Of a DNA stretch of 36,347 nucleotides, positions 9,480-10,880 are shown one piece after another. The stretch is from contig JAHQXB010000158.1 in assembly GCA_029856435.1 (NCBI GenBank), positions 1 through 36,347 of the forward strand, given 5' to 3'. This DNA comes from Candidatus Jordarchaeia archaeon (GTDB lineage Archaea; Asgardarchaeota; Jordiarchaeia; Jordiarchaeales; Jordiarchaeaceae). A model generated the notes under the pieces. That model was not told where the DNA came from. It saw only the letters and a program-made list of their open reading frames with translations, and made no database searches. Position 1 is the stretch's first letter. Every line of letters begins with the position of its first letter. The position numbers were made by a program, and so were the translations under genes.

Positions 9480-9681
9480 GCAGCCAATTCCGGCAAAGCC
9501 CGGAATGTGGGGTTGAAGTTCGAAAAAGCCCAAAAGAGGGCATGGCCACAATTGGGAACATCCTCCCACCGAAAGCAAGGGAGATGTGCCTGCTTCAACC
9601 GTTCCCCAAGCGAGGCCCCCATGAAACCGGTGGAGGAAGACCCAAAGTTACGCGAGGTTAACGCTGGGTCAGAACGGTTGC
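9480..9681 (+). ncRNA. Unidentified ~200-nt structured RNA candidate
   Basis: GC-rich island with many complementary segments: 9488-93/9500-05, 9511-18/9593-600, 9528-31/9538-41, 9558-67/9579-87, 9639-44/9665-70 and end pairing 9480-85/9676-81. G-U pairing and a GCGA tetraloop favour the + strand. Confidence 0.5.
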
Positions 9682-9713: not shown

Positions 9714-9817
9714 TGGTAGCCCGGCGCAGATTCGAATTCCGCGGCCACCAATAGTGTGGTTGCACTGCGGTCAAAGGGTCCAAAGCCCTCTATGCTTGTC
9801 CGCTACACCACCGGGCT
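9714..9817 (-). tRNA. tRNA-Gln(UUG), CCA-encoded, with a 28-nt intron at 53/54
   Basis: Acceptor AGCCCGG/CCGGGCT+ACCA, anticodon arm GAGGG-CTTTGGA-CCCTT, T arm CGCAG|TTCGAAT-CTGCG after intron removal gives 76 nt. Confidence 0.95.
9737..9764 (-). other. Non-canonical tRNA intron (T-arm, 53/54) with BHB motif
   Basis: UGA-CCGC-AG|U...CC-GCGG-AA|U-UCG: 4-bp central helix CCGC/GCGG, two 3-nt bulges, cuts after the 2nd bulge nucleotide reconstitute the T arm. Confidence 0.92.
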
Positions 9818-9925
9818 AGGGGCTTTTTTCTTTTTTTGGGAAGAATTCGTATGTTATGTATACTTTTCGAGTTTTTAACTCTTATCTTTATTGATTTCTA
9901 TTATTATGACAAAATTATGTCAGGC

Positions 9926-10140
9926 TTAATCTTCTTCTATGGTAATTGCTGAATAGTCGCATTGGATTTCGCATGCCCTGCAAACTAGGCACTCGTCTTC
10001 AGATACTACCTTTGCTAAATTTTTTTCAAGTTTGTACACTTCTGCGGGGCAGATTTTTACGCGGTAAGGCTGGTGCCTTATTCCTCTACGCACACCCCAC
10101 AGCCGACGCACTTGTTTTTGTCAACCTTTATTTTCACCAT
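9926..10140 (-). CDS. 2[4Fe-4S] ferredoxin, split: exon1 10140-10086, exon2 10056-9926 (61 aa after splicing)
   Basis: Spliced product MVKIKVDKNKCVGCGVCVEICPAEVYKLEKNLAKVVSEDECLVCRACEIQCDYSAITIEED has two CxxCxxCxxxC motifs. GAGGAG RBS precedes ATG 10140. The unspliced frame stops at codon 21. Confidence 0.9.
10057..10085 (-). other. Candidate BHB (tRNA-type) intron in a protein-coding gene, 29 nt
   Basis: U-GCGU-AG|A-GG-AA-UAAGGC-ACCA-GCCUUA-CC-GCGU-AA|A-A. Removal gives the in-frame junction GTA G|AA ATC TGC CCC (V-E-I-C-P). Confidence 0.85.
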
Positions 10141-10268: not shown

Positions 10269-10880
10269 TTATTTTAGATTGAATGGTTTCCCCTCATTCA
10301 GAATCTTCCTTGGAATATTGTTTTTCCATTTTTCTAAAAAGGCCTTATCTTCTTTGGCTTCGCGGAGATCGTCGGGTAGCATGTGGGGTATTGTTTCTAT
10401 TATGGGGTACCATCTGTTGCACTTTTCACAAATCATTAGGCCTTCCTCCACCTCGGCTCGATATAATAGCCAGTTTATCAGGTATATATTTGTGGTGAGT
10501 TCGGGGGTGAGACTTGCTGGGGGCTTTTCCTTTCTAGTTTCCAATGCCTTTTTTACAAGTTGCGCCGAGGAGGTGCCGCTCAGGTCTTCGATAGTAGTTA
10601 ATATGTCTAATTTTTCTGCGAATGTTTTGAGATAGTCTTTAAGCGGTAAAGGTTCCTTAGTCATCTCGTCCTCTATCTTAACAGTAAATCCTGATTCATC
10701 AATTGTGATTCTGTCCTTCAGGGCCTTTTTTAGAAAGAGTAGGTCCTTTTTTTGTATATCCTCGAGAACTTTTTCGAAATTCTCTTTTTGGGTCTCCCAG
10801 CTGAAGATTTTAAGCTTAAGAGGATAACTTTTGCACCCTTCAATGGGGCAAGCCAGAATATCTAACAACCATAGCTTCAT
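10269..10880 (-). CDS. Trm112-like methyltransferase activator with a large internal helical insertion
   Basis: MKLWLLDILACPIEGC at the N-terminus and EGLMICEKCNRWYPIIETIPHML at the C-terminus (split Zn-binding module). Confidence 0.85.
   Translation of the reverse strand: MKLWLLDILACPIEGCKSYPLKLKIFSWETQKENFEKVLEDIQKKDLLFLKKALKDRITIDESGFTVKIEDEMTKEPLPLKDYLKTFAEKLDILTTIEDLSGTSSAQLVKKALETRKEKPPASLTPELTTNIYLINWLLYRAEVEEGLMICEKCNRWYPIIETIPHMLPDDLREAKEDKAFLEKWKNNIPRKILNEGKPFNLK

Follow-up and report, generated by a model that had tools for sequence, protein, structure and literature searches.

Splicing of HAC1 and XBP1 mRNA proceeds by IRE1 cleavage and RtcB ligation. The pre-mRNA intron of archaeal cbf5 was reportedly treated by Watanabe in 2002 and by Yoshinari in 2006. 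This intron, which occurs in Desulfurococcales and Sulfolobales, is a short BHB-type intron within protein-coding sequence; its length resembles that of tRNA introns, a hetero-oligomeric splicing endonuclease cuts it, and it is restricted to certain clades and shows evidence of gain (Yokobori 2009, PMC2738675). In our literature search, introns of archaeal coding sequences that are cut by the endonuclease were documented essentially only for cbf5. The transposing tRNA introns of Thermoproteales are BHB introns that move between sites, and their families share at least 70-80% identity across genes (Sugahara 2008; Fujishima 2010, going by the statements that cite them in 10.64898/2026.10.13.758758 and PMC4090602). 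In Freyarchaeia and Jordiarchaeia, introns in the T-arm are common, tRNA genes hold ~2.2 introns each, and gains have been repeated (PMC11291895; 10.64898/2026.10.13.758758). A census of Asgard tRNA introns found no copying families in Jordiarchaeia and noted that chance alone often produces matches at 70% identity (10.64898/2026.10.13.758758). Introns of mRNAs are mentioned in neither of these two Asgard studies, and the term 'mRNA' occurs 0 times in the census.

Here we describe two neighbouring inserts of this kind in Candidatus Jordarchaeia archaeon, one in tRNA-Gln(UUG) and one in a ferredoxin gene. The first, at position 53/54, is an ordinary member of the non-canonical tRNA introns of Freyarchaeia and Jordiarchaeia (PMC11291895; 10.64898/2026.10.13.758758). 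The second makes ferredoxin a new host gene for an intron of the cbf5 type, and mRNA introns are unreported for this lineage in the literature that we searched. Unlike the cbf5 case, the host is a 61-aa ferredoxin, the lineage is Asgard, and splicing is predicted from sequence. The idea that one of the two introns was copied from the other is the same in concept as the Thermoproteales families but, unlike in those families, the two hairpins are unrelated and repeated copies are absent. As in HAC1 and XBP1, an mRNA intron would be taken out by a protein endonuclease and RtcB with a change of reading frame, although the nuclease and its recognition motif are different.

Two BHB-type inserts in adjacent genes

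The window is a stretch of 36,347 nt (contig JAHQXB010000158.1) from the 3.54-Mb assembly of this archaeon, here called G000, which we compared with five relatives of the same genus (G001-G005). Ferredoxin lies upstream of tRNA-Gln(UUG), in tandem on the minus strand (Table 1). The original prediction had given the letters, lengths and coordinates of the 28-nt and 29-nt introns correctly, and its further observations also held: 7 of the 8 letters agree between the 3' ends CCGCGGAA and CCGCGUAA, the preceding exons end in CGCAG and CGUAG, and the separation of about 110 bp was measured as 108 nt.

Table 1. Positions of the ferredoxin and tRNA-Gln(UUG) gene parts in the window (splicing as predicted)
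Feature	Position	Strand	Description
tRNA-Gln(UUG) gene	9817..9714	-	CCA encoded
tRNA-Gln(UUG) 5' exon, positions 1-53	9765..9817	-	boundaries fixed by intron-less tRNA-Gln of other Asgard families
tRNA-Gln BHB intron, 28 nt, position 53/54	9737..9764	-	sequence UGCAACCACACUAUUGGUGGCCGCGGAA
tRNA-Gln(UUG) 3' exon	9714..9736	-	T-loop, T-stem 3' strand, acceptor 3' strand, discriminator, CCA
Ferredoxin exon 1	10086..10140	-	ATG at 10140; MVKIKVDKNKCVGCGVCV and base 1 of Glu19
Ferredoxin intron, BHB-type, 29 nt	10057..10085	-	sequence AGGAAUAAGGCACCAGCCUUACCGCGUAA, preceded by ..GUGUGCGUAG
Ferredoxin exon 2	9926..10056	-	Glu19 bases 2-3, ICPAEVY...CLVCRACEIQC...IEED, stop codon
AT-rich spacer, 108 nt, ferredoxin stop to tRNA 5' end	9818..9925	-	

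The insert of tRNA-Gln is flanked by CGCAG of the T-stem 5' strand and UUCGAAU of the T-loop. Without it, the gene gives a 76-nt tRNA-Gln(ttg) that is accepted by ARAGORN, and the intron-less genes of other Asgard families set the boundaries independently of any motif. The BHB structure has a central helix CCGC:GCGG, bulges AG/U and AA/U (the slash marks the splice site) and a 5-bp outer helix, UUUGA:UCGAA, that follows directly after the 3-nt 3' bulge. A 3' CCA (or CC) is encoded in the ~20 recognisable tRNA genes of the genome.

In the ferredoxin gene, the unspliced small ORF that starts at the ATG reads MVKIKVDKNKCVGCGVCVEE and then meets a stop. Excision of the 29 nt (10085..10057) joins GUAG to AAAUCUGCCCC and yields a 61-aa ferredoxin of the 2x[4Fe-4S] type, in which CxxCxxCxxxCP is restored alongside a second CxxCxxCxxxC motif. 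The spliced protein aligned with uninterrupted homologues with no gap across the junction. Its Pfam scores, 43.7 bits for Fer4 and 39.6 bits for Fer4_7, lie above the cut-offs, which the unspliced GTG ORF does not reach, so that the spliced form alone passes.

The 106-nt stretch around this insert folds with a z-score of -3.3. Its 5' bulge (AG/A) and central helix (GCGU:GCGU) are canonical, and the inner part consists of a GG:CC helix and a 6-bp hairpin, UAAGGC/GCCUUA. The 3' splice site, AA/A, differs from that of tRNA-Gln in lying inside a 6-nt loop ahead of an outer helix of 8-10 bp; this 3' bulge is non-canonical, with a single U-A pair, then a gap, then the long outer helix. As modelled, the motif is a relaxed, HBh'-like form of the BHB. 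The boundary can be slid by 1 nt (A/A) with the mRNA unchanged. A consensus fold of three diverged ferredoxin orthologues contained 20 pairs, with one compensatory pair and one loop indel.

Within the spacer between the two genes lies a GTTAAAAA box (9879..9872), unchanged across the genus (alignment columns 301-308), which may be the tRNA-Gln gene's own promoter. Two other features lie close by. The 203-aa protein encoded at 10269-10880 (-) matches the Trm112p zinc ribbon over residues 5-161 at only 35 profile positions, and is predicted to be a Trm112-like fold split by an insertion of ~120 aa. Downstream of tRNA-Gln, and convergent with it, is a GC-rich stretch of ~200 nt (9480-9681), flagged in the original prediction as a candidate structured RNA, in which we found no long conserved ORF and no Rfam match even at E<=1.

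Both inserts are conserved in the genus

Both inserts were found at identical sites in all four genus relatives in which the locus is assembled; in the fifth, the contig ends at the tRNA. DNA identity of the locus in these four is 97, 96, 76 and 72%, the ferredoxin-tRNA tandem is kept, and exon 1 is in frame in each. Presence and position in relatives had been suggested as a check of intron mobility, and among these four there was no presence/absence difference at either site.

Outside the genus the two introns part company. The tRNA-Gln intron has 30 nt in the relatives from the genus, and in the sister family this site carries an intron of 12-19 nt; its helices and bulges are invariant among orthologues and its interior varies in length and sequence. 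At 53/54 it is absent from tRNA-Gln of other Asgard families, which is intron-less or has introns elsewhere. The closest ferredoxin homologues found outside the genus, from four other families and with 53-58% identity, are uninterrupted, and in the sister family no ferredoxin adjoins tRNA-Gln. Judged by these comparisons, the tRNA-Gln intron is order-wide, and we found the ferredoxin intron in the genus only.

Similarity of the two introns

The original prediction saw one architecture in the two introns and took it as a possible trace of intron spread from tRNA into mRNA. The part that stood is the BHB type, the size class and the topology; the part that found no support is common descent, as the hairpins are unrelated and the structures differ. 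To judge the resemblance we used 17 introns of this genome, 12 from tRNAs and 5 from mRNAs (ferredoxin, rtcB, ahcY, tyrS and ppsA), a set that is small and, having been picked by our own BHB solver, biased to well-formed type I motifs. Stops or a change of frame interrupt the Pfam matches in rtcB, ahcY, tyrS and ppsA, whose inserts are all type I BHBs of 29-30 nt. Position 53/54 holds five of the tRNA introns.

Across the set, 14/17 introns start with A, 11/17 end in AA, 7/17 follow an exon that ends in AG, and the helix strands are rich in G/C. The tRNA-Gln and ferredoxin introns agree at 14/20 junction positions, compared with a mean of 7.9 (sd 2.7) over the 136 pairs; this puts them in a tie for ranks 3 to 5, within the top ~3%. 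Unlinked pairs scored equally or higher: Arg and Lys-i2 (18/20), Asp-i2 and rtcB (15/20), and Lys-i2 and tyrS (14/20). The helix strand, which has to complement each intron's own exon (CCGC of the T-stem, GCGU of the Cys-Val codons), supplies four of the matching letters, and the Cys-Val codons already read UGCGUC in an intron-less ferredoxin homologue. Within the set, 'CC' ahead of the helix strand is peculiar to this pair. Inside the hairpins the similarity was at chance level (score -3, rank 27/136), being matched by 27% of plain and 39% of structure-preserving shuffles. The trait of a mobile family, at least 70-80% identity beyond what splicing needs, is absent between the two.

The orthologues also bear on the proposed signature N-G-S-AA...CC, whose letters are present here and lost in the orthologues of both introns. 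Those of the tRNA-Gln intron start with AGAAG or AGUAG and have 'UC' for 'CC', and those of the ferredoxin intron start with AGGUA; because the starts and ends diverge in this way, 'N-G-S-AA' and 'CC' are not conserved features. Most of what the two introns share in letters can thus be accounted for without a common origin.

Three further likenesses were set aside. A 7-nt match, AAUCUGC, occurs in both 3' exons, and is offset by 3 nt, constrained in ferredoxin by coding (Ile-Cys-Pro) and weaker in G002 and G005. The hairpins of Lys-i2 and tyrS agree at 17/24 positions (family-wise p = 0.009), and the score fades from 9 to 7 to 3 in the orthologues (G001-G004 and G002). Those of Asp-i1 and ahcY also looked related, and seem less alike by eye in the G005 orthologues. 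We read the last two as chance combined with a positional preference for A../..UU.

A search of the genome for CCGCGKAA gave 89 sites, among them one further BHB intron with such an end. This intron, GCGU AG/U GG...CC GCGU AA/G with the same 3' end CCGCGUAA as in ferredoxin, is a 32-nt insert in the variable-arm loop of tRNA-Leu(UAG) (C81:37097-37265 (+)). The tRNA carries three inserts (D-loop, variable-arm loop and T-loop) and was read by eye and from genus orthologues, as the splice-and-ARAGORN solver gave no solution. The Leu(UAG) and ferredoxin introns agree at 16/20 junction positions and share GCGUAG/NGG...CCGCGUAA; under independence the probability of such a match is ~0.01, a rough and post hoc estimate. 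The orthologous Leu introns end in CCACGAAA and CUGCGUAG, and the CCGCGUAA end was found only in aligned G000 and G004. Since the orthologous ends differ, the shared end is recent and lineage-specific rather than ancestral. The original prediction had named two things that would speak against it: features generic to all BHB introns, and an end found in no other intron. The features did prove mostly generic, but the end is also that of the tRNA-Leu(UAG) intron.

Copying from a tRNA intron is improbable

The ferredoxin intron could be descended from a tRNA intron, that of the Gln T-arm or of the Leu(UAG) variable arm, by reverse splicing or DNA copying into a site able to form the central helix, so that only the selected ends are still alike. 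The matches at 14/20 (Gln) and 16/20 (Leu(UAG)) end positions would fit, the tRNA-Gln intron is the older of the two, tRNA introns have been gained or lost within the genus (Asp intron 1, Lys 53/54 and the Leu T-loop insert), and fast-evolving hairpin interiors would make old copies unrecognisable. However, the Gln and ferredoxin interiors resemble each other no more than chance predicts, the letters shared at the ends are either dictated by the exon or found in most introns, the tRNA-Gln intron did not have G-S-AA and CC ancestrally, and the Leu CCGCGUAA end is confined to the two aligned genomes named above. Nor did the genome contain repeated intron copies: blastn-short of the 17 introns against the 3.54-Mb assembly gave self matches, and the remaining matches were of at most 16 nt with E >=0.016. 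As for the proximity of the two genes, chance alone would place an mRNA intron no more than 350 bp from a tRNA intron ~0.3-0.5 times, a rough figure that assumes ~46 tRNA genes in 3.5 Mb and tens of mRNA introns. The published census has no copying route for Asgard tRNA introns (10.64898/2026.10.13.758758). We therefore regard descent from a tRNA intron as improbable. The proposed spread from tRNA to mRNA was not borne out, given interiors at chance, no second copies in the assembly and different phylogenetic depths, and with it goes the hoped-for trace of intron movement; the census likewise leaves the arrival route of introns open (10.64898/2026.10.13.758758).

A broader form of this idea is that Asgard archaea of the Jordiarchaeia type harbour a single pool of ~30-nt mini-introns, spliced by the endonuclease, that enters tRNAs as well as mRNAs along one common path of insertion. 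On this view the ferredoxin intron is a diverged copy of a tRNA intron, that of the Gln T-arm or the Leu variable arm, and only the selected ends GG...CC-GCGK-AA after GCGUAG or CCGCAG would stay recognisable. We give it the same low standing as simple descent.

A little less probable still is a functional sub-class, convergent but meaningful, in which the enzyme or a regulator would favour GG...CC next to a GCGK helix together with AG and AA bulges. The CCGCGKAA end is common to three introns of the genome, and the bulge letters are strongly biased across the 17 introns. However, the orthologues of all three introns drift from the motif yet keep the intron.

The explanation that we favour as the probable one is that the two are independent BHB introns, alike through a shared enzyme and through complementarity to their own exons rather than through copying. 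The shared enzyme would impose A-rich bulges, a G/C-rich 4-bp helix and a hairpin of ~30 nt on both, and the 3' part of each intron would be constrained to complement its own exon.

The ferredoxin insert and the splicing machinery

Selection on the ferredoxin gene was examined in five assemblies, G000 and the four relatives with the locus. The insert lies at the same codon in all five, where the unspliced reading meets a stop after 20-24 codons; three genomes have an insert of 29 nt and two have one of 28 nt, and the exon frames are intact. In the spliced frame dN/dS is 0.06-0.20 with dS of 0.8-2.9, which indicates strong purifying selection. The stem changes from GGC:GCC to GAC:GUC in orthologues, a GC to AU compensatory exchange, and the bulges change from AG/A to AA/A and from AA/A to AC/A. 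This combination of findings is difficult to account for if the RNA retains the insert.

That the 29-nt insert stays in the RNA, with ferredoxin a pseudogene, read by recoding or bypass, or made from exon 2 alone, is very unlikely: the relaxed 3' bulge would allow it, and gene callers would give only the 61-aa GTG ORF (9926..10111) that covers exon 2, but at this dS purifying selection acts on the spliced frame in both exons, the 1-nt change in insert length between species breaks any fixed read-through or upstream GTG frame and leaves the exon frames unharmed, and the fold is conserved with its compensatory pair. A product of exon 2 by itself, moreover, would have just one of the four cysteines in the first cluster motif, and it scores below the Pfam cut-offs.

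The genome encodes the enzymes that splicing would need. Two genes carry the EndA domain PF01974 (contigs C104 and C64; 108 and 80 bits), and there is one RtcB gene (579 bits). Asgard EndA has been reported as an (alpha-beta)2 enzyme with an L1 loop that cuts relaxed motifs (PMC5829648), and two EndA-domain genes would fit such an enzyme of broad specificity. The sole RtcB gene (C93:302-1636, -) itself carries a 30-nt BHB insert with an in-frame TGA, and the mRNA of the ligase thus appears to require the ligase itself.

By their structures, the restored products, the conservation under selection and the enzymes encoded, both inserts are genuine BHB-type introns, and we infer that they are cleaved and ligated in the cell. 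In the precursor RNA, four exon bases would pair with four bases close to the 3' end of the intron, exposing both cut sites in bulges. The splicing endonuclease would cleave after the second base of each bulge, and RtcB would then ligate the exons. In tRNA-Gln this would restore the T-arm. In ferredoxin it would remove an in-frame UAA and a frameshift from the mRNA, and the 61-aa two-cluster ferredoxin would be made from spliced mRNA only, the unspliced mRNA giving a 20-aa peptide.

The ferredoxin intron is one of at least five verified mRNA introns in the genome. It is kept under strong selection genus-wide, as are those of at least four housekeeping genes, rtcB, ahcY, tyrS and ppsA; the ferredoxin, tyrS and ahcY introns are present in every genus genome in which the site is assembled. 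This suggests, on genomic grounds, that mRNA splicing by the tRNA machinery may be routine in close relatives of eukaryotes.

Other introns of the genome

ARAGORN (with and without -i) and the Rfam tRNA model, run on the window and the genome, returned almost nothing, because nearly all tRNAs hold non-canonical introns; this matches the published ~2.2 introns per tRNA gene. Pattern searches for the T-loop and acceptor recovered only ~20 tRNA genes, and the splice-and-ARAGORN solver was ambiguous for several tRNAs with multiple introns. We also scanned the whole genome for BHB candidates that, once taken out, would fuse two open frames, and compared them with frame-shifted controls. Junctions between tandem genes dominated the signal and left no usable excess overall; an excess was confined to the strongest hairpins (13 vs ~4.5).

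Several tRNA introns differ within the genus. The T-loop insert of tRNA-Leu is absent in G002. Intron 1 of tRNA-Asp (28 nt; G000:C115:30624-30786) is present in the other five genus genomes and precisely absent in G002 (C351:36-157), which reads CGUCGUGG/ACCC. In G005, tRNA-Lys(CUU) is without the 53/54 intron of its G000 counterpart (C109:14114-14276) and has an insert of ~19 nt right after the anticodon loop that is not in G000; intron positions therefore differ between orthologous tRNAs within the genus.
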